From assembly GCF_044324785.1 (NCBI RefSeq), contig NZ_CP172129.1: a stretch of 64,000 bases of DNA; one strand, 5' to 3'. Shown in pieces: positions 1,263 through 63,238 of this stretch; the stretch's first letter is position 1, and each line of letters begins with the position of its first letter. Under the pieces are notes generated by a model. It did no database searches. It saw only the letters and a list, made by a program, of their open reading frames with translations, and was not told the DNA's origin. A program made the position numbers and the translations under genes. Source of the DNA: Escherichia coli. GTDB lineage: Bacteria; Pseudomonadota; Gammaproteobacteria; Enterobacterales; Enterobacteriaceae.

Positions 1263-2003
1263 TCACCTCAGGGGAGGCAGTGTACGCAGGATCTCCGCAG
1301 CATCCCCCCCGTCACCTGTGAAAGGCACTGCCAGCGTGGCAGCCATATCCAGTGCAAACACTCTGGTATAAACCTCCATCGAACGTGGATCCCTGTGACC
1401 AGCCAGTGCCTGGATGACTTTCCGGGGCTGGCGGTGATAGAGCATGTGCATGATATAGCTGTGCCGGAAGGTGTGTGGTGTGACCGGAATCGAAAAGTGT
1501 ACTCCGTCAGCTTCGGCCCGTCTGACAGCCTGCTTCAGCCAGTTGCGCATGGTTTCGTCGGTCACGGCCCATAATGGTTCACGACGACGGGGCCGGGTGG
1601 TGATCATCCAGCTTTCCATCTGCCTGACATAGCTTATATCTGTCAGCGGAACCAGGCGCACTTCATCTTTTGGCGGGCGTCCGCGTCGCGCACGCACTTT
1701 TTCGGACAGGATCCGCACAAACGGTCTTACTCCATTCAGGTCAAATGATTCCGGCGTCAGCATCCGGGCTTCGCCAATACGCATTCCGGTATTCCAGAGG
1801 GTGGCGAACAGCATATGGTGACGCTGATCCGGCATATAGAAAAGAAGGGCACTCACTTCCGGGGCCAGCAGGTAGGCCGGTGTGGCCCCCGTGGAAGTGG
1901 CCATTCTTCTCAGGGAGAGCGCTGTTGCAAAATCCACCCCCGGCGCAATGGGTAACAGGGAGACGCGTTCTGGTGAATTCTGCAGGGGAATGACATTGTT
2001 CAT
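1263..2003 (-). CDS. int: Tyrosine site-specific recombinase (phage integrase family), RepFIB-associated int
   Basis: 246-aa ORF with the C-terminal catalytic region typical of tyrosine recombinases (HTFRHSY...LAGHRD...Y). Confidence 0.8.
1625..1645. repeat. Additional isolated iteron-like copy (GACATAGCTTATATCTG) lying inside the int coding region
   Basis: Same core motif as the iteron array. Confidence 0.5.
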
Positions 2004-37006: not shown

Positions 37007-38041
37007 TTAAAGCTGTGCTGCCAGAGTTGATAATAATTGTTCTGTCTGTTGCCATGATATGCATTCATCAGTAACAGACTGACCATACTCTAGCGGAAAA
37101 CTATCGGATTGTTTTCCATCTTGTAAAAAGCTTTCCACCATAATGCCAGCTACATATCCTGGTATTTTTTTCCGATTATCTATAACTTGACGTGCAACGG
37201 AAATTTGCCGTTTAGCCACTTTACCGCTATTACCATGGCTACAATCAATTATCAGACGATGGTTAATACCCTCATCATGCATTAATTTCACTGCCTTAGT
37301 TATATCAGACAAACCATAGTTAGGTTCTCTACCTCCACGTAATATTAGATGTCCATGTGGATTGCCATCGGTTAATAGTGTAGATATACTATTTGTTAAA
37401 GATGTCATATATACAATATGTTGTTCACGGGCTGCAATAATAGCGTCAATAGCTAAGTTAATATTTCCATCAGTACTGTTTTTAAATCCAACTGGACAAT
37501 GTAAACCAGACGCAAGTTGACGATGCGTTTGTGATTCAGTGGTTCTGGCACCAATAGCACCCCAACATATTAAATCAGCAATATAGGGAGTAAGAAAAGG
37601 ATCGAGGAATTCTGTAGCGGTTGCGACACGCATCGTTGTGATTGAAGACAAACACTGGCGAGCATATCGTATCCCTTTCTCAACATCATAACTTCCATTT
37701 AGATCAGGATCGTGCATTATTCCCTTCCAGCCTTTACGGGTTCGAGGTTTCTCAAAATAAGTGCGCATTACAATGTACATTTTCGATAAGTACTTATTCT
37801 GTAATACGAACAATCGCTTCGCATAATCAACTGCGGCCTGAACGTCATGGATTGAGCATGGACCAACAATCACAAGTAAGCGAGGATCTTTTCCCAGCAA
37901 AATATTCGCTATAATATCTCGTTGCAGAGAGATCCATGTTACGGTTTCTTCCGATACTGCGATTTCTTTATGAATCTCGCCCACAGTGGGTAAACTGCCA
38001 AGCAACTTCCCGCGGTAGATTAATTTACTAGCTGACTGCAT
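37007..38041 (-). CDS. Class I 3-deoxy-7-phosphoheptulonate (DAHP) synthase, AroG/AroF/AroH-like
   Basis: 344-aa ORF with DAHP synthase I features (…LLVIVGPCSIHD…IDCSHGNS…). Confidence 0.8.
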   Translation of the reverse strand: MQSASKLIYRGKLLGSLPTVGEIHKEIAVSEETVTWISLQRDIIANILLGKDPRLLVIVGPCSIHDVQAAVDYAKRLFVLQNKYLSKMYIVMRTYFEKPRTRKGWKGIMHDPDLNGSYDVEKGIRYARQCLSSITTMRVATATEFLDPFLTPYIADLICWGAIGARTTESQTHRQLASGLHCPVGFKNSTDGNINLAIDAIIAAREQHIVYMTSLTNSISTLLTDGNPHGHLILRGGREPNYGLSDITKAVKLMHDEGINHRLIIDCSHGNSGKVAKRQISVARQVIDNRKKIPGYVAGIMVESFLQDGKQSDSFPLEYGQSVTDECISWQQTEQLLSTLAAQL

Positions 38042-38244
38042 CTTGTCTCCTAAAAGCGCTATTTCAGACCATCAGTTGCACACAGTAGATGATAATGATA
38101 ATCATTTACTGTATAATTGGCAATATATGGGGATTCATAGTCATTTCTGAGATAATATACGTTAGGCCTTCTCTCCCGTACGGAAATCACTTGTTTTCCG
38201 TAAATTACCTGAATCTTAATCCCTGAGCTGCGGCTAGCTGTGGA

Positions 38245-38582
38245 ACTCACAAAAGCTGACCGGGCCGTGGCACAGCCTCTCTGCTGGCAGAACAGCGTAC
38301 TGCAGAAGTCGTCGTACTGCCGCTGGTCCCGGCATCAGGTCTGCCCGCAGATGGCACTTCTGCCACTGATCTGCCGGTGGAGCTGAACGGCATGACATAT
38401 CAGGCCTGCCGTGGGGATTTTGTGGTGCGCCTCGACGGCAGCACCTGTCTGCAGTTATAGAATAAAGAAGGCGGGGAGGTACGCAGGGAGGGCGATCCGC
38501 TGGAAGTGGCGTAGTGGCTGTAGGCCTGTAATGATGCAGGAATAGAAGTTCGTGTACAGGTTAATGAAAGCATCACCCCGTA
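38245..38582 (+). pseudogene. Decayed copy of the 3' half of the gene at 47720-48310, with in-frame stops
   Basis: DNA aligns with 47955-48310 at high identity but carries stop codons (…CAGTTATAGAATAAA…, …GTGGCGTAGTGGCTGTAGGCC…). Confidence 0.6.
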
Positions 38583-38600
38583 AAAACATGCCGGCACGGT

Positions 38601-38909
38601 TTACACATCATTCCATGGTGGCAGCCGGTTAACTTTCCTGCGCCACCAGTGGAAAGAGGCCATGAGCAGTCCGAACAAAAAACCACTCGTGATACTTATA
38701 ATAATGGCCTCACCTGCTACCATTCCTGACGGCCCCCAGTACATAAACCACATTGCACATCCCCAGGAAATACCCCATAAGCCCCCCATCAGCAGCGTAA
38801 CCTGCCAGAACGGCATAAAGGGCAATGGCGGAAGCCGGATACCCAGCCGCCAGAGAATACGCAGCAGAGGAGGAGCATAATTACTCCGCCACATCTTTTT
38901 GCTGTCCAT
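38601..38909 (-). CDS. Small membrane protein, paralog of 48330-48587
   Basis: 102-aa ORF with hydrophobic segments; 28 aa longer than the paralog at 48330-48587. Confidence 0.45.
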   Translation of the reverse strand: MDSKKMWRSNYAPPLLRILWRLGIRLPPLPFMPFWQVTLLMGGLWGISWGCAMWFMYWGPSGMVAGEAIIISITSGFLFGLLMASFHWWRRKVNRLPPWNDV

Positions 38910-39076
38910 CAGGGCAATTGCCCGGGCTTTTTTTGCTCAAAAGTCACAGGAGCACCTCCGTTCCATGATGTAAACGTGACACAACTTATTGTTATTGATT
39001 ATTATTATCATACCGTGATTATGTTGTCATGCACCTGTACACTGATAAAAGAAAGGGAGAACAGGAGGCTGGCTGA

Positions 39077-39384
39077 ACAACCAATCCGTTCGTCCAGTTC
39101 AATGGCGGCTATCAGGTTCTGCTCCGCAATGTACTCACGAATGCGCTTCCTGTCCTGGCTGGTCAGCATGGTCCAGAATATCTCCATCATTTACCGGCGA
39201 CTTTCCTGCTCATTTCATCCCGCCATGCAGCAGCGGAAGATTCGACCATGTCATGGGGAAGCACATCGCCGCGCTCGAGTTGCTGACGTCCTGCCTCAAC
39301 CTGGTCACGGAACCAGGTATTATGCTGCCGTTCCACGGTCTGGCGCATAAAATCCCGGATTAACTGAGAGCCATTACGGTCCAT
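39077..39384 (-). pseudogene. Remnant of the ParE/RelE-type toxin and RHH antitoxin pair (toxin truncated after ~40 codons; antitoxin frameshifted at its 5' end)
   Basis: DNA aligns with 52190-52580; the toxin ORF runs into unrelated sequence; a 1-bp difference (GCAGGGCCAT versus GCAGCGGCCAT) removes the antitoxin start. Confidence 0.65.
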
Positions 39385-39742
39385 GCTTTTTGCAGGGCCA
39401 TAAAAGCATCCTTCAGTTCAGCGTCAATTCTTAAACTCATATTAACCTGTGCCATTTATCACCCCGTCATTACCACGTATATACACAGTATATAACGATT
39501 CAGATATCGTCACTAGGATATGCCGCGCCAGCGGCATGGAAGGCGGCACTCCGCTGTTTCATATGATACCGCCGAAGCCCGATGTAAGCCGCTACAGTCG
39601 TCCGAAAGTCACCAGCCTCCTCCCCCCTGCCGTCATCCGTGCATCAGCTATGCACTGAGTATGCCTGCCCTTCCCTAGAGAATCCTGCTAGGCTTGCCAC
39701 ACTGATATATCTTGACTTTATGTAAACGATATGACACTTTAA

Positions 39743-39761
39743 CATGATAATGATTACCATT
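39743..39761. promoter_or_regulatory. Fur box upstream of cvaA
   Basis: CATGATAATGATTACCATT in the cvaA promoter region. Confidence 0.5.
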
Positions 39762-40065
39762 CTCTTTTAATATACAGAGAAACTAGGAAATAGATGAATG
39801 AGTTATGTTACTTTAATATTCTCTGACAATAACCTAAATCAGTTAGATTATTGTCATTTAATAAATAATGACATTCTTTCATCATAAATAAAAAGACTAT
39901 TGTTTATAATATTGTTCTCAGCATTATATGATTATTTATCCTGATAACTCTCCTATGCTGTATGTTTATATGATTTTCCTTGAAACATATAATGCAAATT
40001 TTCGATTTATTTTCCATCATTAATCCAGATAAACAACAAACTAATAGTATGCAAGGAGACATTAT

Positions 40066-41340
40066 TTGTTTCGCCAGGATGCTTTAGAAAACAGAAAAAT
40101 GAAGTGGCAGGGACGGGCAATATTACTTCCCGGAATACCACTGTGGTTAATCATGCTGGGAAGCATTGTGTTTATTACGGCATTTCTGATGTTCATTATT
40201 GTTGGTACCTATAGCCGCCGTGTTAATGTCAGTGGTGAGGTCACAACCTGGCCAAGAGCTGTCAATATATATTCAGGTGTACAGGGATTTGTTGTCAGGC
40301 AGTTTGTTCATGAAGGGCAGTTGATAAAAAAAGGGGATCCTGTTTATCTGATTGACATCAGTAAAAGTACACGCAATGGTATTGTCACTGATAATCATCG
40401 CCGGGATATAGAAAACCAGCTGGTTCGTGTGGACAACATTATTTCCCGTCTGGAAGAAAGTAAAAAAATAACGCTAGATACCCTGGAAAAACAACGTCTG
40501 CAATACACAGATGCGTTCCGTCGCTCATCAGACATTATACAGCGTGCAGAGGAAGGGATAAAAATAATGAAAAATAATATGGAGAATTACAGATACTATC
40601 AGTCAAAAGGACTGATTAATAAAGATCAATTAACTAACCAAGTTGCATTATATTATCAACAACAAAACAACCTTCTCAGTCTGAGCGGACAAAATGAACA
40701 AAATGCCCTGCAGATAACCACTCTGGAGAGTCAGATTCAGACTCAGGCAGCAGATTTTGATAATCGTATCTATCAGATGGAACTGCAACGACTCGAATTG
40801 CAGAAAGAACTGGTTAACACTGATGTGGAAGGCGAAATCATTATCCGGGCGTTGTCTGACGGGAAAGTTGACTCCCTGAGTGTCACTGTAGGGCAAATGG
40901 TCAATACCGGAGACAGCCTTCTGCAGGTTATTCCTGAGAACATTGAAAACTATTATCTTATTCTCTGGGTCCCGAATGATGCTGTTCCTTATATTTCGGC
41001 TGGTGACAAAGTGAATATTCGTTATGAAGCCTTCCCCTCAGAAAAATTTGGGCAGTTCTCTGCTACGGTTAAAACTATATCCAGGACTCCTGCGTCAACA
41101 CAGGAAATGTTGACCTATAAGGGAGCACCTCAAAATACGCCGGGTGCCTCTGTTCCCTGGTATAAAGTCATTGCGACGCCTGAAAAGCAGATAATCAGGT
41201 ATGACGAAAAATACCTCCCTCTGGAAAATGGAATGAAAGCCGAAAGTACACTATTTCTGGAAAAAAGGCGTATTTACCAGTGGATGCTTTCTCCTTTCTA
41301 TGACATGAAACACAGTGCAACAGGACCGATCAATGACTAA
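40066..41340 (+). CDS. cvaA: CvaA, colicin V secretion membrane-fusion protein (HlyD family)
   Basis: 424-aa ORF (TTG start as in the track) with N-terminal TM and HlyD-type adaptor; precedes cvaB. Confidence 0.85.
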
Positions 41341-42109
41341 CAGGAATTTCAGACAAATTATAAATCTGCTTGATTTGCGCTGGCAACGTCGTGTTCCGGT
41401 TATTCATCAGACGGAGACCGCTGAATGTGGACTGGCCTGCCTAGCAATGATATGCGGTCATTTTGGTAAGAATATTGACCTGATATATCTTCGCCGGAAG
41501 TTTAATCTCTCTGCCCGTGGAGCAACCCTTGCAGGAATCAATGGAATAGCGGAGCAACTGGGGATGGCCACCCGGGCTCTTTCACTGGAGTTGGATGAAC
41601 TTCGAGTCCTCAAAACGCCGTGTATTCTCCACTGGGATTTCAGTCACTTCGTCGTTCTGGTCAGCGTAAAGCGTAACCGTTATGTACTGCATGATCCGGC
41701 CAGGGGCATAAGATATATCAGCCGGGAGGAAATGAGCCGATATTTTACAGGCGTTGCACTTGAGGTCTGGCCCGGAAGTGAATTCCAGTCGGAAACCCTG
41801 CAGACCCGCATAAGTCTTCGTTCACTGATTAACAGTATTTACGGTATTAAAAGAACGCTGGCGAAAATTTTCTGTCTGTCAGTTGTAATTGAAGCAATCA
41901 ATCTGCTAATGCCGGTGGGGACACAGCTGGTTATGGATCATGCTATTCCTGCGGGGGACAGAGGGCTACTGACGCTAATTTCTGCTGCTCTTATGTTTTT
42001 TATATTACTCAAAGCTGCAACGAGTACGCTGCGCGCATGGTCTTCACTGGTTATGAGCACGCTCATCAATGTACAGTGGCAGTCGGGGCTGTTCGATCAT
42101 CTTCTCAGA
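41333..42109 (+). pseudogene. cvaB: cvaB 5' portion (C39 peptidase domain and first TM segments), interrupted by IS903
   Basis: [20 protein letters not shown]…ETAECGLACLAMI… reading frame ends at the IS903 left end after …LFDHLL. Confidence 0.85.
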
Positions 42110-43166
42110 GGCTTTGTTGAATAAATCGAACTTTTGCTGAGTTGAAGGATCAGATCACGTATCTTCCCGACAACGCAGACCGTTCCGTGGCAAAGCAAAA
42201 GTTCAAAATCACCAACTGGCCCACCTACAATAAAGCCCTCATCAACCGTGGCTCCATAACTTTCTGGCTGGATGATGAAGCTATTCAGGCCTGGTATGAG
42301 TCAGCAACACCTTCTTCACGAGGCAGACCTCAGCGCTATTCTGACCTTGCCATCACTACTGTGCTGGTCATTAAACGCGTATTCAGGCTGACCCTGCGGG
42401 CTGCGCAGGGCTTTATTGATTCCATTTTTTCTCTGATGAACGTTCCGCTACGCTGCCCGGATTACAGCTGTGTCAGCAGGCGGGCAAAGTCGGTTAATGT
42501 CAGTTTCAAAACGCCCACCCGGGGTGAAATCGCACACCTGGTAATTGATTCCACCGGGCTGAAGGTCTTCGGTGAAGGCGAGTGGAAAGTCAAAAAGCAT
42601 GGCCAGGAACGCCGCCGTATCTGGCGTAAGCTGCATCTCGCCGTTGACAGTAAAACACATGAAATCATCTGCGCTGACCTGTCGCTGAACAACGTTACGG
42701 ACTCAGAGGCCTTCCCCGGGTTAATCCGGCAAACCCACCGGAAAATCAGGTCAGCCGCCGCCGATGGCGCTTACGATACCCGGCTATGTCACGATGAACT
42801 GCGGCGTAAGAAAATCAGCGCGCTTATCCCTCCCCGAAAAGGTGCGGGTTACTGGCCCGGTGAATATGCAGACCGTAACCGTGCAGTGGCTAATCAGCGA
42901 ATGACCGGGAGTAATGCGCGGTGGAAATGGACAACAGATTACAACCGTCGCTCGATAGCGGAAACGGCGATGTACCGGGTAAAACAGCTGTTCGGGGGTT
43001 CACTGACGCTGCGTGACTACGATGGTCAGGTTGCGGAGGCTATGGCCCTGGTACGAGCGCTGAACAAAATGACGAAAGCAGGTATGCCTGAAAGCGTGCG
43101 TATTGCCTGAAAACACAACCCGCTACGGGGGAGACTTACCCGAAATCTGATTTATTCAACAAAGCC
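42110..43166 (+). mobile_element. IS903 (IS5 family), 1057 bp, flanked by 9-bp target-site duplication CTTCTCAGA
   Basis: Terminal inverted repeats GGCTTTGTTGAATAAATCG… at 42110 and …TTTATTCAACAAAGCC ending at 43166; direct repeats CTTCTCAGA at 42101-42109 and 43167-43175. Confidence 0.85.
42142..43110 (+). CDS. IS903 transposase
   Basis: 322-aa ORF filling the element; DDE-type transposase. Confidence 0.8.
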   Translation: MKDQITYLPDNADRSVAKQKFKITNWPTYNKALINRGSITFWLDDEAIQAWYESATPSSRGRPQRYSDLAITTVLVIKRVFRLTLRAAQGFIDSIFSLMNVPLRCPDYSCVSRRAKSVNVSFKTPTRGEIAHLVIDSTGLKVFGEGEWKVKKHGQERRRIWRKLHLAVDSKTHEIICADLSLNNVTDSEAFPGLIRQTHRKIRSAAADGAYDTRLCHDELRRKKISALIPPRKGAGYWPGEYADRNRAVANQRMTGSNARWKWTTDYNRRSIAETAMYRVKQLFGGSLTLRDYDGQVAEAMALVRALNKMTKAGMPESVRIA

Positions 43167-44495
43167 CTTCTCAGACTACCGCTGGCGTTTTTTGAACGCC
43201 GAAAATTAGGTGATATCCAGTCACGTTTTGACTCCCTTGACACATTGAGGGCCACATTTACCACCAGTGTGATCGGGTTCATAATGGACAGCATTATGGT
43301 TGTCGGTGTTTGTGTGATGATGCTGTTATACGGAGGATATCTCACCTGGATAGTTCTCTGCTTTACCACAATTTACATTTTTATTCGTCTGGTGACATAC
43401 GGCAATTACCGACAGATATCAGAAGAATGTCTTGTCAGGGAGGCCCGTGCCGCCTCCTATTTTATGGAAACATTATATGGTATTGCCACGGTAAAAATCC
43501 AGGGGATGGTCGGAATTCGGGGGGCACACTGGCTTAATATGAAAATAGATGCGATAAATTCGGGTATTAAGCTAACCAGGATGGATTTGCTCTTCGGAGG
43601 AATAAATACCTTTGTTACCGCCTGTGATCAGATTGTAATTTTATGGCTGGGAGCAGGCCTTGTGATCGATAATCAGATGACAATAGGAATGTTTGTAGCG
43701 TTTAGTTCTTTTCGTGGGCAGTTTTCGGAAAGAGTTGCCTCTCTGACCAGTTTTCTTCTTCAGCTAAGAATAATGAGTCTGCACAATGAGCGCATTGCAG
43801 ATATTGCATTACATGAAAAGGAGGAAAAGAAACCTGAAATTGAAATCGTTGCTGATATGGGGCCAATATCCCTGGAAACCAATGGTTTAAGCTATCGTTA
43901 TGACAGTCAGTCAGCACCGATATTCAGTGCTCTGAGTTTATCTGTAGCTCCGGGGGAAAGTGTGGCTATAACTGGTGCTTCCGGTGCGGGAAAAACCACA
44001 TTAATGAAAGTACTATGTGGACTATTTGAACCTGATAGCGGGAGGGTACTGATAAATGGTATAGATATACGCCAAATTGGAATAAATAATTATCACCGGA
44101 TGATAGCCTGTGTTATGCAGGATGACCGGCTATTTTCAGGCTCAATTCGTGAAAATATCTGTGGTTTTGCAGAGGAAATGGATGAAGAGTGGATGGTAGA
44201 ATGTGCCAGAGCAAGTCATATTCATGATGTTATAATGAATATGCCAATGGGATATGAAACATTAATAGGTGAACTTGGGGAAGGTCTTTCTGGCGGTCAA
44301 AAACAGCGTATATTTATTGCACGAGCCTTATACCGGAAACCAGGAATATTATTTATGGATGAGGCAACCAGTGCTCTTGATTCAGAGAGTGAACATTTCG
44401 TGAATGTTGCCATAAAAAACATGAATATCACCAGGGTAATTATTGCACACAGAGAAACAACGTTGAGAACTGTTGATAGAGTTATTTCTATTTAA
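43167..44495 (+). pseudogene. cvaB: cvaB 3' portion (remaining TM domain and ABC ATPase)
   Basis: Frame resumes …RLPLAFFERRKLGDIQSRF… after the IS903 duplication; Walker A GASGAGKTT, signature LSGGQKQR. Confidence 0.85.
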
Positions 44496-45190: not shown

Positions 45191-45237
45191 TACTTTTTAT
45201 CCCATTACTTTCTATCCCATTACCACACAAACACTAA

Positions 45238-45256
45238 CGATAATGATTATCGTTAA
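45238..45256. promoter_or_regulatory. Fur box in the cvi-cvaC promoter
   Basis: CGATAATGATTATCGTTAA about 50 bp upstream of the cvi start. Confidence 0.6.
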
Positions 45257-45308
45257 CATAGTCAAGAGTGAAGGGTAGGAGGCCCTCAACCCCCTATAAG
45301 GGGTCCGC

Positions 45309-47723: not shown

Positions 47724-48310
47724 CTCAGAGCCGCCGACCGTCGCCACTGCAGCGAAGAATGCTGATTGTGCTGGCTGCCCTTGATGAAAAACGGCCAGGA
47801 CCCGTGCTGACGCGGGACATAGAACGGGTGCTGGAGCGAAGCGGGGAAGCCCCAGTCTACGGGCCAAACCTGCGCGCCTCCTGCCGTCGTCTGGAGGATG
47901 CCGGCTGGCTGCGTACCCTGCGCGCTCCGAACCTGCAGCTGGCAGTGGAGCTGACGGACGTCGGCCGGGCCGTGGCACAGCCTCTGCTGCTGGCAGAACA
48001 GGACCGCCTCCGGGCAGAACAGCGTGCGGCAGAAGTCGTCGTACTGCCGCTGGTCCCGGCAGCAGGTCTGCCCGCAGATGGCACTTCTGCCACTGATCTG
48101 GCGGTGCAGCTGAACGGCATAACGTATCAGGCCTGCCGTGGGGATTTTGTGGTGCATCTCGACGGCAGCACCTGTCTGCAGTTATGGAATAAAGAAGGCA
48201 GGGTGGTACGCCGGGAGGGCGATCCGCTGGAAGTGGCGCAGTGGCTGCAGGCCTGTCACGATGCAGGAATGGAGGTTCGCGTACAGATAAATGAAAGTGC
48301 CGCTCCGTAA
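47720..48310 (+). CDS. Hypothetical protein (196 aa), GC-rich
   Basis: Coupled to the upstream ORF; a decayed second copy exists at 38245-38582. Confidence 0.45.
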   Translation: MTQSRRPSPLQRRMLIVLAALDEKRPGPVLTRDIERVLERSGEAPVYGPNLRASCRRLEDAGWLRTLRAPNLQLAVELTDVGRAVAQPLLLAEQDRLRAEQRAAEVVVLPLVPAAGLPADGTSATDLAVQLNGITYQACRGDFVVHLDGSTCLQLWNKEGRVVRREGDPLEVAQWLQACHDAGMEVRVQINESAAP

Positions 48311-48329
48311 GAACACGCCTGTGCACGGT

Positions 48330-48587
48330 TTACACATCATCCCATGGTGGCAGCCGGTTAACTTTCCTGCGCCCCCAGTAGATAAACCACATTGCACATC
48401 CCCAGGAAATGCCCCATAAGCCCCCCGTCAGCACCGTGACCTGCCAGAACGGCATAAAGGGTAATGGCGGAAGCCGGATACCCAGCCGCCAGAGAATACA
48501 CAGAAGAGGAGGGGCATAATTGCTCCGCCACATCTTTTTGCTGTCCATCAGGGCAATGGCCCGGGCTTTTTTCTGCTCAAAGGTCAC
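48330..48587 (-). CDS. Small membrane protein (85 aa), paralog of 38601-38909 with a 28-aa in-frame deletion
   Basis: Hydrophobic ORF; aligns with 38601-38909. Confidence 0.4.
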   Translation of the reverse strand: MTFEQKKARAIALMDSKKMWRSNYAPPLLCILWRLGIRLPPLPFMPFWQVTVLTGGLWGISWGCAMWFIYWGRRKVNRLPPWDDV

Positions 48588-48715
48588 AGGAGCACCTCCG
48601 TTCCATGATGTAAACGTGACACAGCTTATTGTTATTGATTATTATTATCATGCTGTGGTTATGTTGTCATGCATCAGTACACTGACAAAAGTGCAAAAGA
48701 AAGGAAAACAGGCAG

Positions 48716-49051
48716 ATGAACAGAAAATATTATTTTAATAATATGTGGTGGGGATGGGTGACGGGGGGATATATGCTGTATATGTCATGGGATTATGATT
48801 TTAAATACAGATTACTGTTCTGGTGTATTTCTCTCTGCGGAATGGTTTTGTATCCGGTTGCAAAATGGTATATTGAAGATACAGCTCTGAAATTTACCCG
48901 GCCTGATTTCTGGAACAGCGGTTTTTTTGCTGATACACCTGGAAAAATGGGATTGCTTGCTGTTTATACGGGTACTGTTTTCATATTATCTCTTCCGTTA
49001 AGTCTGATATATATTCTTTCTGTTATTATAAAAAGGCTGTCTGTAAGATAG
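48716..49051 (+). CDS. Colicin Ia immunity protein
   Basis: 111-aa membrane protein MNRKYYFNNMWWGWVTGGYMLYMSWDY… matching colicin Ia/Ib immunity; convergent with cia. Confidence 0.85.
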   Translation: MNRKYYFNNMWWGWVTGGYMLYMSWDYDFKYRLLFWCISLCGMVLYPVAKWYIEDTALKFTRPDFWNSGFFADTPGKMGLLAVYTGTVFILSLPLSLIYILSVIIKRLSVR

Positions 49052-49072
49052 ACAGCCTGTCTTATATTTTAT

Positions 49073-50953
49073 TTAAATACCCCAGAACTTATTCGCTTTT
49101 TCCACAAGCGATTCATCAATCAGCGCACCGGTGACAGCCATCAGTAAACCATACCCGATAATGCCTAAAGCGCTTCCGGTAAGAATACTGAAGACCAGTG
49201 CAACAAGAGCCGTTGCGGCATTGCCTGCTATAATGGCTTCTGTTTTAACAAAAAGAGGACGCCAGTTCTCTGTCCGGACACCCTTACCAAACTCAGTGAT
49301 CCAGTCAGCAAGACTTGTAAATTTTCCTGCATATCCCAGTCCCCGACTGAATCTGTTCAGATTAGACGATATATCAGACAGCTTCACTGACTCAAGGGCT
49401 GCGGCAATCGCTGCACGATCTTTTGCATTAATTTTTTTGTTAATGTCAGCCCGGTACTTTTCATACGTTTTTAATGCCTCTTCAACATTACGTATTTTCT
49501 TCCCTTTAGCCTGCCCGGCCATCTCTCTGGCTAACTGCTCAGCTTTTGCACCATATTTTTCTGAAACTGATTTCAGGAACTCTGTTGTGAAATTAATTGC
49601 GTCTTTCGTTGCCTTCAGTTCATCCTGTTTTCTTTTCTCTTCCGCTATCTTCTGATTGATGCCGGCAAGCTGGTTACGGATATTCTCTTTTTCCTTCAAC
49701 AGGGCATTAAGAGCGTCATTTGCATGCTTTTGCTCATTTGTTCTGGCACTGAGGTTATTTCTCGCAGAATTTACCGCAGATTCAGCAGAGGTGATTTTAT
49801 TTCTGGCATCAAGCAATCTTTGCCGTAACTTATCCCATTCAGCAACTTCAGCATTATAAATTTTCTTGTCACCTTCCACATCCTCTGTCACCACCGGATT
49901 CCGGTCATTCAGAATATTGCGTTTATAGTCCAGACCGGAATGGGTCAGAAGATAATTCAGGTTTGCACGGTTATCGATGACTGCGCTGGTTGTGATTTTT
50001 ATCGTACCGGCAAATCTCGGATCACCGCTCACAACAATAGAATGATTTGTTGATGAACGCCCCGGGAATTTTTCAGGGGAAACTATCGTTTTGCCGTCAA
50101 GCGTGTTTTTCTGTTGCGTCAGCTGTTGCTCAGCTCTGGTTAATGCATTACGGGCCGTGTTAAGCGATTCCGTCACTGAACTGAGTTTATTCCGGGCCTC
50201 TGAAATGGCCCTGTCATTCCGTGTCTGCTGCCCGAGCAGACGGGCCTGTTGTGCATCAAGAACGGCAAGGGCTGCCCCGCCATTTTTTTCCAGCTCTGAC
50301 AACCGCGTGTCCAGAATACCTTTTCTGCGCTCGTATTCAGCAAGCATATCAGCGGCCTTCTTGTCTGCGTTCTGCGCATCCTTCTGCCGTTTTTCAGCCT
50401 GTTCGATTAACGACCTGGCCTCCCGGGGAGATATACGAAGAGAATCAGCATCAGCAAAGAGCATCCGGCTCTCTGTATGCAGCCGGAGGGCATCATATCC
50501 GGCGATTTCAGTACGGAATCCGTATTCTCTCAGCTCTGCCTGCAGGAGTCTGAACTCCTGTCGTGTAATATCAGCGGCATCTGCGTTTCCGGCACGGAGT
50601 GTTTTCAGTGTGTTTTCATCTTTTTCCCTTGCAGCAATCGCCGCAGAGAGGCGTTTTGCGGCTTCAGTACGCTTATTCTCATTCTCTTTCTGCTGCGCGC
50701 TGAGCGTCATTTTGTACGCTGTGATTTCCTTGTCCCTTTTTTCGATATCACTTCGGGTTGGGGAATCATCGACCCACTCGTTTCCGCCCCAGATGGTTTT
50801 GTTCCCGAAGGAACTCCATGCAGGCGGGGTACCATGAAAGACATCGACACGTGGAGGGTTTACATAAATATCAACGGCCATAATTTCATGGCCATCTGAA
50901 TCATACCCCAGCGATTCTGCACCGGGATTTGTAATACGTACAGGGTCAGACAT
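49073..50953 (-). CDS. cia: Colicin Ia (pore-forming colicin)
   Basis: 626-aa ORF MSDPVRITNPGAESLGYDSDGHEIMAVDIYVNPPRVDVFHG… with long coiled coil and C-terminal hydrophobic channel domain. Confidence 0.9.
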   Translation of the reverse strand: MSDPVRITNPGAESLGYDSDGHEIMAVDIYVNPPRVDVFHGTPPAWSSFGNKTIWGGNEWVDDSPTRSDIEKRDKEITAYKMTLSAQQKENENKRTEAAKRLSAAIAAREKDENTLKTLRAGNADAADITRQEFRLLQAELREYGFRTEIAGYDALRLHTESRMLFADADSLRISPREARSLIEQAEKRQKDAQNADKKAADMLAEYERRKGILDTRLSELEKNGGAALAVLDAQQARLLGQQTRNDRAISEARNKLSSVTESLNTARNALTRAEQQLTQQKNTLDGKTIVSPEKFPGRSSTNHSIVVSGDPRFAGTIKITTSAVIDNRANLNYLLTHSGLDYKRNILNDRNPVVTEDVEGDKKIYNAEVAEWDKLRQRLLDARNKITSAESAVNSARNNLSARTNEQKHANDALNALLKEKENIRNQLAGINQKIAEEKRKQDELKATKDAINFTTEFLKSVSEKYGAKAEQLAREMAGQAKGKKIRNVEEALKTYEKYRADINKKINAKDRAAIAAALESVKLSDISSNLNRFSRGLGYAGKFTSLADWITEFGKGVRTENWRPLFVKTEAIIAGNAATALVALVFSILTGSALGIIGYGLLMAVTGALIDESLVEKANKFWGI

Positions 50954-50993
50954 TCGGTATCTCCTTCATCCGCTGAGGAAAACAAATGAATTA

Positions 50994-51024
50994 ACTGCTT
51001 ACGTATGTGGATACATATACAGTA
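50994..51024. promoter_or_regulatory. Probable SOS operator (tandem overlapping LexA boxes) in the cia promoter
   Basis: On the cia strand: TTGACA …17 nt… TACTGTATATGTATCCACATACGTAAGCAG, containing CTGT-N8-type half sites. Confidence 0.55.
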
Positions 51025-51138
51025 TTAATTTATTAAGGAGAAAATGGCATGTCAAGATTTAATGATAGTGATTATCATTAACATGAAGTGATTTTACGTC
51101 TGGATAACGTAAATGATTGCGGTATACAGGCCAGGCGG

Positions 51139-52032: not shown

Positions 52033-52314
52033 CTATGGCCACTTCTGTGCAGTATGCAATACACGCAGGATATACACTTTTCCCCACTGGCTGTCGACCT
52101 CATAAACCAGAACAAAATGCGGGTGAATAACCAGTTCCCGGGTACCTTCCACACGACCGTTGCGGCCTTTATACGGCTGCCCGGCCAGGCTGCTGGCTGA
52201 ATAACCAATCCGTTCGTCCAGTTCAATGGCGGCCATCAGGTTCTGCTCCGCAATGTACTCACGAATGCGCTTCCTGTCCTGGCTGGCCAGCATGGTCCAG
52301 AATATCTCCATCAT
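52033..52314 (-). CDS. RelE/ParE-superfamily type II toxin
   Basis: 93-aa ORF overlapping the upstream antitoxin by 4 bp; ParE/RelE-like C-terminus (…HPHFVLVYEVDSQWGKVYILRVLH…). Confidence 0.65.
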   Translation of the reverse strand: MMEIFWTMLASQDRKRIREYIAEQNLMAAIELDERIGYSASSLAGQPYKGRNGRVEGTRELVIHPHFVLVYEVDSQWGKVYILRVLHTAQKWP

Positions 52315-52580
52315 TTACCGGCGACTTTCCTGCTCATTTCATCCCGCCATGCAGCAGCGGAAGATTCGACCATGTCATGGGGAAGCACATCGCCGCGCTC
52401 GAGTTGCTGACGTCCTGCCTCAACCTGGTCACGGAACCAGGTATTATGCTGCCGTTCCACGGTCTGGCGCATAAAATCCCGGATTAACTGAGAGCCATTA
52501 CGGTCCATGCTTTTTGCAGCGGCCATAAAAGCATCCTTCAGTTCAGCGTCAATTCTTAAACTCATATTAACCTGTGCCAT
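52311..52580 (-). CDS. Ribbon-helix-helix type II antitoxin
   Basis: 89-aa ORF MAQVNMSLRIDAELKDAF… upstream of the toxin. Confidence 0.6.
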   Translation of the reverse strand: MAQVNMSLRIDAELKDAFMAAAKSMDRNGSQLIRDFMRQTVERQHNTWFRDQVEAGRQQLERGDVLPHDMVESSAAAWRDEMSRKVAGK

Positions 52581-53190
52581 TTATCACCTCGTCATTACTA
52601 CGTATATACACAGTATATAACGATTCAGATATCGTCACCAGAATATGCCGCGTCAGCGGCATGGAAGGCGGCACTCTGTTGTTGCATATGACACAGGAGT
52701 AAAACCGCCGAAGCCCGGCGTAAGCCGGTACGGACTGATAGATTTCACCTTACCCATCCCCAGCCCTGCTAGGCCATATCCGCTTTCAGCCATGATAAAG
52801 CTTCTGTGCGCGGTCGGAGTGGTCCCGACGAGGGTTTACCCGAAGTCGGGGCGTATCTCCGCGTTAGCGGGCCGTCAGGGCCGCTTACGAGCGTGTACTC
52901 AATACTTTCAGCGAGAAGACTGACAGCCATGATGGAGTATAGTTACAACATTCATAATTAAAAGCGACTCTGTTCCGGCCCGAAGGGCCGGGGCGGGGCC
53001 GCTTTTCAGTTATGAGGGAGGGGCTTTGTGGTTTCAGTTCTGCGCTGGTTCGGGGTTTTTCTGGAGGTTGGTTTTGTGTGTTGTAACTAAAGTGGCTCCG
53101 GTTGGGGCCCGCCGTTTACGGTGGGAGGTGCATATCTGTCTGTCCACAGGACAGGCAGTGAATAGGTTTTCTTTTTAAATGAATGTAATT

Positions 53191-58496: not shown

Positions 58497-58651
58497 GGCT
58501 TGTTATGACTGTTTTTTTGTACAGTCTATGCCTCGGGCATCCAAGCAGCAAGCGCGTTACGCCGTGGGTCGATGTTTGATGTTATGGAGCAGCAACGATG
58601 TTACGCAGCAGGGCAGTCGCCCTAAAACAAAGTTAACCCGGAACCAAAATT
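58497..58651. other. attI1 recombination site and cassette promoter region (5'-conserved segment)
   Basis: …GCCCTAAAACAAAGTTA… junction immediately before the first cassette. Confidence 0.7.
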
Positions 58652-59223: not shown

Positions 59224-60383
<1,160 letters not shown>

Positions 60384-61960: not shown

Positions 61961-62780
61961 GGCACTGTTGCAAATAGTCGGTGGTGATAAACTTATCATC
62001 CCCTTTTGCTGATGGAGCTGCACATGAACCCATTCAAAGGCCGGCATTTTCAGCGTGACATCATTCTGTGGGCCGTACGCTGGTACTGCAAATACGGCAT
62101 CAGTTACCGTGAGCTGCAGGAGATGCTGGCTGAACGCGGAGTGAATGTCGATCACTCCACGATTTACCGCTGGGTTCAGCGTTATGCGCCTGAAATGGAA
62201 AAACGGCTGCGCTGGTACTGGCGTAACCCTTCCGATCTTTGCCCGTGGCACATGGATGAAACCTACGTGAAGGTCAATGGCCGCTGGGCGTATCTGTACC
62301 GGGCCGTCGACAGCCGGGGCCGCACTGTCGATTTTTATCTCTCCTCCCGTCGTAACAGCAAAGCTGCATACCGGTTTCTGGGTAAAATCCTCAACAACGT
62401 GAAGAAGTGGCAGATCCCGCGATTCATCAACACGGATAAAGCGCCCGCCTATGGTCGCGCGCTTGCTCTGCTCAAACGCGAAGGCCGGTGCCCGTCTGAC
62501 GTTGAACACCGACAGATTAAGTACCGGAACAACGTGATTGAATGCGATCATGGCAAACTGAAACGGATAATCGGCGCCACGCTGGGATTTAAATCCATGA
62601 AGACGGCTTACGCCACCATCAAAGGTATTGAGGTGATGCGTGCACTACGCAAAGGCCAGGCCTCAGCATTTTATTATGGTGATCCCCTGGGCGAAATGCG
62701 CCTGGTAAGCAGAGTTTTTGAAATGTAAGGCCTTTGAATAAGACAAAAGGCTGCCTCATCGCTAACTTTGCAACAGTGCC
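61961..62780 (+). mobile_element. IS26 (820 bp), copy 2, inverted relative to copy 1
   Basis: GGCACTGTTGCAAA at 61961 and TTTGCAACAGTGCC at 62767-62780. Confidence 0.95.
62024..62728 (+). CDS. tnp26: IS26 transposase Tnp26
   Basis: Protein sequence identical to copy 1. Confidence 0.95.
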   Translation: MNPFKGRHFQRDIILWAVRWYCKYGISYRELQEMLAERGVNVDHSTIYRWVQRYAPEMEKRLRWYWRNPSDLCPWHMDETYVKVNGRWAYLYRAVDSRGRTVDFYLSSRRNSKAAYRFLGKILNNVKKWQIPRFINTDKAPAYGRALALLKREGRCPSDVEHRQIKYRNNVIECDHGKLKRIIGATLGFKSMKTAYATIKGIEVMRALRKGQASAFYYGDPLGEMRLVSRVFEM

Positions 62781-63238
62781 CTCTTGTCCTCGTCCGGTAA
62801 GAAGTCGGGATTGACGGCATTGCGGGACACCACATCAACGGCGCGTCCGAACATTCGCGACAGCCTGCGCTCAAACGGACATTGATCAACCGATAGGCTG
62901 TGAACAGCGCCAAGTTGCTGCCCCATTGACGGCCACGCTTTGAGCAAATCCGCTCCAGACAGATCAGCCGCCGGTACTCCCGGAATTGCCGTTATCACCA
63001 AGCATGCACCCTCCTGTTCCTCCTGCCAGTTGATGACCTCGGGGCAAGCCACACCTCGACCTTTGAGCCAAATGAGGCGGTCACGCTCTCCAGCGAGCTC
63101 ACCGCGGCGGGAAGCAGGTGCGATTTTCGCGAAGGCATGCCCGTCACCACGTCGAAAAACAAAATCACCAGATTCTCCGCCTCTGACAGGCAACCAGTCA
63201 GAATGCGATTCACCAAAAAAAATATTAGTTCGATTCAA
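62781..63238 (-). pseudogene. strA: strA / aph(3'')-Ib, 5' portion only (about 153 codons), 3' end removed by IS26
   Basis: MNRTNIFFGESHSDWLPVRGGESGDFVFRRGDGHAFAKIAPASRRGELAGERDRLIWLKG… then …DEDK fused to IS26 sequence. Confidence 0.9.

Follow-up and report, generated by a model that had tools for sequence, protein, structure and literature searches.

The colicin Ia gene (cia) of this Escherichia coli plasmid is very probably transcribed from a sigma-70 promoter which is held off by two independent repressors, LexA and Fur. Colicin Ia is predicted to integrate both signals, DNA damage and iron. [quoted passage not shown]

Plasmid context and colicin loci

The window, meaning the whole 64-kb stretch of DNA that was analysed, was compared with known plasmids. 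Its first 51 kb are collinear with the E. coli plasmid pCFS3313-1, and collinearity with pSF-088-1 extends from 35.5 to 62.8 kb; the two are IncFIA/FIB/FIC ColV-type virulence plasmids. The genes repFIB, ompT, the ets genes, iss, iroBCDEN, a DAHP-synthase gene, cvaA-cvaB, cvaC-cvi, iia-cia, an exonuclease gene, yacAB and a Tn3-family/class 1 integron resistance region were found. Within this resistance region, a blaTEM-1 segment is flanked by two 100% identical inverted copies of IS26 (59224-60044 and 61961-62781). The sole large difference between pCFS3313-1 and the window is a stretch of 1057 bp at 42110-43166. The features of both colicin loci are:

49073..50953, minus strand: cia, colicin Ia, 626 aa; aligns to PDB 1CII over residues 23-624 (1268 bits); same annotation in 100% identical plasmids
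48716..49051, plus strand: iia, colicin Ia immunity, 111 aa; called 'colicin 1A immunity protein' in the annotation of identical plasmids
49034..49058, both strands: terminator-like hairpin between the convergent cia and iia (terminator scan)
48616..48649, plus strand: promoter-like site of iia, GTGACA-18-TATTAT (promoter scan), overlapped by a 16/19 Fur-like box at 48631-48649
39746..39764, plus strand: Fur box over spacer and -10 of the promoter-like site of cvaA (ATGACA-18-TACCAT, 39731..39760; promoter scan); 17/19 (minus strand) and 16/19 (plus strand)
45239..45257, minus strand: Fur box over spacer and -10 of the cvi/cvaC promoter (TTGACT-17-TATCGT, 45265..45237; promoter scan); 17/19
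41333..44495, plus strand: cvaB in two pieces, 41333-42109 (5') and 43167-44495 (3'); apart from the insertion it is collinear with the intact gene of pCFS3313-1
42110..43166, plus strand: IS903-type element of 1057 bp; its inverted ends measure 18 bp and the duplicated target (CTTCTCAGA) 9 bp; identity of 99.8% to an IS903B-annotated element of CP098992.1

The immunity gene iia is convergent with cia, which is the arrangement of toxin and immunity gene required of a colicin Ia operon (cia/iia). The stretch that had been placed upstream of cia in the original prediction is indeed present, on the minus strand and 5' of the colicin Ia ORF.

For colicin V, two earlier claims were confirmed. Fur-box-like sequences had been proposed for the promoters of cvaA and cvi, and at each of them a match of 17/19 was detected. 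No LexA site was found near these two Fur boxes with the LexA matrix described below (best score 8.0 bits). Repression of both promoters by Fur was described by Boyer and Tai 1998, as cited in PMC3438092. The exporter had been regarded as disrupted, and IS903 does lie within cvaB, after codon 259 of 698. The CvaB product is cut after native residue 259, so that 439 of the 698 residues are lost at the C-terminus, including the ATPase domain. The intact CvaB ABC exporter required of a colicin V system is not encoded in the window. Judged from the sequence, this plasmid should not support colicin V export unless a homologue on the chromosome takes over.

Upstream of cvaA, a segment of approximately 1.4 kb (38228-39595) is paralogous, with 85-95% identity, to 47933-48691 and 52186-52731. 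It resembles an 'empty' copy without the 3.5-kb block iia-cia-exo-yacB, the two flanks of which it matches, and it holds a second yacA copy that is annotated in pS88. Upstream of the two yacA copies, near-identical palindromes with the sequence TACTGTGTATATACGT(A/G)GTA are located at 52596-52615 and 39471-39490. Their scores with the LexA matrix are 13.0 and 6.7 bits, and they are more likely an antitoxin operator than a LexA site.

The cia promoter and its predicted LexA operator

Upstream of cia, the original prediction had described TTGACA followed by overlapping LexA-box-like sequences; TTGACA and one LexA box were recovered on the minus strand (51055..51050 and 51024..51005). The elements of the promoter are:

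51050..51055, minus strand: perfect -35 hexamer, TTGACA (promoter scan; 10/12 matches together with the -10 at a 17-bp spacer)
51027..51032, minus strand: -10 hexamer, TAAATT (promoter scan), invariant in 58 promoters
51005..51024, minus strand: single LexA box, TACTGTATATGTATCCACAT, approximately -4 to +16 from the inferred start (LexA matrix, 13.7 bits)
50993..51002, minus strand: orphan half-site-like sequence containing CAG, GTAAGCAGTT, the 'second box' of the original prediction (half-site +3.4 bits, full 20-mer -8.4 bits)
51064..51082, minus strand: Fur box, GTTAATGATAATCACTATC, approximately -62 to -44 from the inferred start (17/19 to the consensus GATAATGATAATCATTATC)
50961..50965, minus strand: Shine-Dalgarno sequence AGGAG, 7 nt 5' of the ATG at 50953 (read from the sequence)

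The sequence TACTGTATATGTATCCACATACGTAAGCAG (51024..50995, minus strand) follows downstream of TTGACA, the 17-bp spacer and TAAATT. The -35 hexamer is invariant in an alignment of seven plasmids. The start site of cia is predicted at about 51020. No second upstream promoter overlapping the Fur box was found on the cia strand by the promoter scan.

For the detection of LexA sites a symmetric 20-bp matrix was used. It was built from 20 LexA sites of the E. coli chromosome, rather than from a curated file, and contained no colicin sites; the training sites scored between 12.7 and 26.3 bits. With 13.7 bits, the cia box lies within this range and is the fourth best site of the window. Four sites of at least 13.6 bits were detected in the window vs. 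0.33 expected from 200 first-order Markov simulations. A search with the LexA consensus (CTGTATATATATACAG, at most 3 mismatches) gave 3 matches in the window vs. 0.13 expected. As an internal positive control the box GACTGTACAAAAAAACAGTC was used, which is located at 58507-58526, 11 bp upstream of the ATG of intI1, and was recovered by the matrix with 15.5 bits. We take it to be the published LexA site of the class 1 integron integrase promoter, which is known for SOS control.

The left half of the cia box is perfect and reaches the training maximum of 14.7 bits. In the right half, CAG is replaced by CAC and the score is -1.0 bits, lower than all half-sites of the training set; some training sites likewise are without one of the canonical trinucleotides. 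The box begins 2 bp past the -10 hexamer and overlaps the predicted start site. All other 20-mer offsets across the cia promoter score below 0 bits. The SOS-type operator proposed for this promoter was borne out by the matrix scan, in the form of one box. As far as the sequence can tell, LexA has just this one box at cia, its left half being perfect and its right half degenerate.

Two further matches to the LexA matrix were noted elsewhere in the window. One of them (15.6 bits, 37474-37493) is located within the DAHP-synthase gene and is probably due to chance. The other, CACTGTTTATGGATACAGGT at 2028-2047 (14.1 bits), lies 25 bp upstream of a tyrosine recombinase gene (1263..2003, minus strand) beside repFIB. 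It may belong to an SOS-controlled plasmid recombinase or may be a chance match.

The natural variation of the promoter was examined with a metagenome scan, using an invariant 20-mer, together with plasmid loci. This resulted in 58 intact promoters with 24 haplotypes. Fur box, -10 hexamer and left LexA half are nearly invariant across these promoters from plasmids and metagenomes. In all 24 haplotypes the LexA box is the best match at the same position, with scores from 10.5 to 20.1 bits. The allele of the window is, at 13.7 bits, near the bottom of the natural range. Its right end, CCAC, is the minority form: it was found in 113 PLSDB plasmids, whereas at least 569 carry precisely the CCAT haplotype.

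Of the eight columns that are commonly polymorphic in the 58 cia/cib promoters, six are clustered at 51001-51007, just past the CCA of the LexA box, and all of these are transitions. This stretch could reflect selection on the transcript rather than LexA binding. A predicted hairpin at the 5' terminus of the mRNA is kept, with differing registers, in 7 of 7 folded sequences, among them both major haplotype families (..CATATACGTAAG.. and ..CATGTATACAAG..). Many IncI1 plasmids and metagenome contigs carry the full Fur and LexA promoter before a cib remnant, which ends approximately 20 codons in (L017, L048, L051, L008). For one haplotype with such a remnant, mutation of the CTG of the LexA box to ATG was observed.

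The Fur box of cia and comparison with known promoters

The Fur box of cia is located 8 bp upstream of the -35 hexamer and was missed in the original prediction; it lies 4 bp outside the interval reported there. With 17/19 matches it is tied in the consensus scan with the boxes of cvi, cvaA and the DAHP-synthase gene as best in the window, and no site of at least 17/19 occurred in 200 simulations. Matches of at least 15/19 were found 24 times in the window vs. 0.25 expected, with both strands and overlapping registers counted. The search with the consensus and at most 3 mismatches gave 13 matches vs. 0.03 expected. Among these Fur-like sequences are matches of 15/19 or 16/19 approximately 95-460 bp upstream of iroB and iroN. 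The cia box reaches 17/19 in 22 of the 24 haplotypes and 16/19 in the other two; across the 58 promoters only two of its columns vary, both with low frequency.

The original prediction assigned the two bacteriocins to different stress signals, DNA damage for colicin Ia and iron starvation for colicin V. LexA on cia and Fur on colicin V were retained from this proposal. The separation of the signals was not, because the Fur box of cia is as good as those of cvaA and cvi, and because cia mRNA transcribed from the identical promoter of pS88 rises under iron limitation.

The plasmid pS88 (pECOS88, ColV-Ia) has the same gene order, yacA-yacB-exo-cia-iia, and its cia promoter is 100% identical to that of the window over 206 bp. 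In contrast to the window, where cvaB carries IS903, cvaB of pS88 is intact. Up-regulation of cia, cvaA, cvaB and cvaC in iron-poor media was reported for this plasmid (PMC3438092, Lemaitre 2012). The amount of cia mRNA increased 5.1-fold with dipyridyl (p=0.105, not significant), 21-fold in serum (p=0.023), 6.0-fold in urine ex vivo and 70-fold in vivo (PMC3438092). The expression of dinB, an SOS gene that served as reference in these experiments, changed 0.69-2.36-fold, and cvaA, cvaB and cvaC were up 13-44-fold in the three ex vivo conditions (PMC3438092). Read-through from the exonuclease gene upstream of cia was considered as source of the control of cia and was rejected: in pS88 this exonuclease gene, yacC, changed 0.38-0.95-fold while cia rose 5-70-fold (PMC3438092).

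Another 17/19 Fur box of the window (38091-38109) precedes the DAHP-synthase gene by 50 bp. This gene corresponds to ORF123 of pS88. For ORF123 an iron-induced increase of more than 100-fold was reported (PMC3438092). The Fur-like box of the iia promoter recurs with identical sequence at 772-790 of L010, an IncI1 ColIb plasmid, and the window has a paralogous copy at 38991-39009. Iron control of immunity by this box is unsupported. The iia promoter is identical over 180 bp in pS88, where imm mRNA did not respond to dipyridyl (1.10-fold) and increased 5.6-fold in serum (PMC3438092).

Over the 129 positions that run from Fur box to ATG, the colicin Ib promoter Pcib of pCol1B9 from S. Typhimurium SL1344 is identical to the window at 127. 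Fur box, -35 hexamer, spacer, -10 hexamer, left LexA half and start codon are common to both, as is the 5' UTR save one base (A/C). The other difference is located at the right end of the LexA box, CCAT in Pcib (15.2 bits) and CCAC in the window (13.7 bits). The toxin encoded by pCol1B9 is colicin Ib, that of the window colicin Ia. Upstream of Pcib, yagA and other genes of the IncI1 plasmid follow, whereas in the window the exonuclease gene is directly adjacent. Compared with pCol1B9, 4.27 kb comprising yagA and its neighbours are absent between exonuclease gene and colicin promoter. The junction, with a shared TAAA, is located at 51096-51093. The Fur box lies 11 bp downstream of it, so that the regulatory module was kept in full.

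For Pcib, strong induction by mitomycin C was shown with a Pcib-luc fusion and for the ColIb protein; induction by DTPA was comparable and the combination of both was maximal (PMC3879352, Nedialkova 2014). Like the Fur box of cia, which does not overlap the core hexamers, the Fur site of Pcib is placed upstream of the -35 hexamer, and Fur was called the second lock of this promoter (PMC4675545, Spriewald 2015). According to Gillor 2008, as cited in PMC4675545, the colicin Ib promoter contains one LexA binding site. The LexA site of the colicin Ia and Ib promoters was traced to a sequence paper from 1986, as cited in PMC3879352 and PMC4675545. A survey from 2025 describes Fur in addition to LexA sites for bacteriocins targeting iron receptors (PMC12546727). 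In a limited literature search, no paper with direct mitomycin C induction data for colicin Ia was found.

Colicins E1, A, K and others possess dual overlapping SOS boxes (Gillor 2008, as cited in PMC4675545). As in these colicins, the LexA operator of cia sits just 3' of the -10 hexamer of a strong colicin promoter. Unlike them, the cia promoter has one LexA-scoring box, and the second lock would be Fur instead of a second LexA dimer. The cia promoter also differs from those of cvaA and cvi. There, the Fur box covers spacer and -10 without a LexA site nearby; here, it is placed upstream of the -35 hexamer and combined with LexA.

Proposed dual control of cia and alternative explanations

An operator of two overlapping LexA boxes, as suggested in the original prediction, would be bound cooperatively by two dimers as in colicins E1, A and K, and cia would be controlled by SOS only, apart from the Fur-controlled colicin V. 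The 28-bp stretch in fact opens with CTG and closes with CAG, the half-site GTAAGCAGTT is positive on the matrix, the sequence AAGCAG downstream of the LexA box is invariant in the 58 promoters, and dual boxes are present in most colicin promoters (PMC4675545). However, the 20-mer of the candidate second box (51012..50993) scores -8.4 bits, a value reached by 3.5% of the 20-mers of the window, and does not exceed 0.7 bits in any of the 24 natural haplotypes, whereas the two boxes of ColE1, tested as control with the same matrix, reach 20.8 and 14.8 bits. The offset to the first box is 12 bp and not 15 bp as in ColE1. In one metagenome variant a 2-bp deletion lies between the LexA box and the downstream CAG, and the literature gives Pcib one LexA site only (see above). 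Exclusive SOS control is contradicted by the 17/19 Fur box and the published iron induction. Overlapping boxes could not be substantiated, and we consider this explanation highly improbable.

It might also be assumed that the CCAC box is too weak to matter and that cia on ColV plasmids is in practice an iron-starvation gene under Fur only. The negative score of the right half-site and an allele among the weakest of the 24 haplotypes point in this direction, as does the rise of cia in pS88 without a rise of dinB (PMC3438092). Nevertheless, the left half-site is perfect, the total score is still within the range of the chromosomal training sites, and a box over the start site is ideally placed to repress. 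Moreover, Pcib, only one base apart in the box, responds to mitomycin C (PMC3879352). Control of cia in practice by Fur only is very unlikely. Chance resemblance of the LexA-like and Fur-like sequences would be favoured by AT-rich intergenic DNA with alternating purine-pyrimidine runs. Per 64 kb, however, only 0.33 LexA sites of at least 13.6 bits and 0 Fur sites of at least 17/19 are expected. Both sites flank one strong promoter and are conserved in 58 promoters, and the published expression data fit. The probability that the two sites are accidental is negligible.

Repression by LexA and Fur together thus remains the preferred explanation. One LexA dimer on the 20-bp box covering the predicted start site would block RNA polymerase, and this block would be lifted by RecA-stimulated cleavage of LexA in the SOS response. 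Fe2+-Fur would occupy the 19-bp box centred near -53. From there Fur probably extends across AT-rich DNA as far as the -35 hexamer, so that upstream contacts of RNA polymerase would be prevented until iron is low. Either signal alone should result in partial expression, both together in maximal expression. Of this model, anatomy, scores and conservation come from the present analysis, whereas the binding of LexA and Fur to the cia promoter, the position of the start and the way in which Fur represses are deduced or drawn from the published work on pS88 and Pcib. The extent to which the CCAC allele may weaken LexA binding is likewise deduced. Some observations argue against it. A Fur box upstream of the -35 hexamer and not over the core promoter is atypical for Fur repression, the right LexA half is degenerate and belongs to a minority allele, and the effect of dipyridyl alone on cia of pS88 was not significant.

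The minority allele CCAC stands beside an untouched Fur box. If repression by LexA were weakened by it, colicin Ia would mainly be governed by iron and, with cvaB destroyed, would be the only exportable iron-responsive bacteriocin of the plasmid. We regard this as rather unlikely.

For the plasmid of the window, the annotation is to be corrected: colicin Ia is predicted to respond to DNA damage and to iron limitation, while colicin V would be controlled by Fur only and would not be exportable unless another exporter replaces CvaB. Since colicin V lacks export by CvaB, colicin Ia is probably the sole bacteriocin exported from this plasmid in the iron-limited host.
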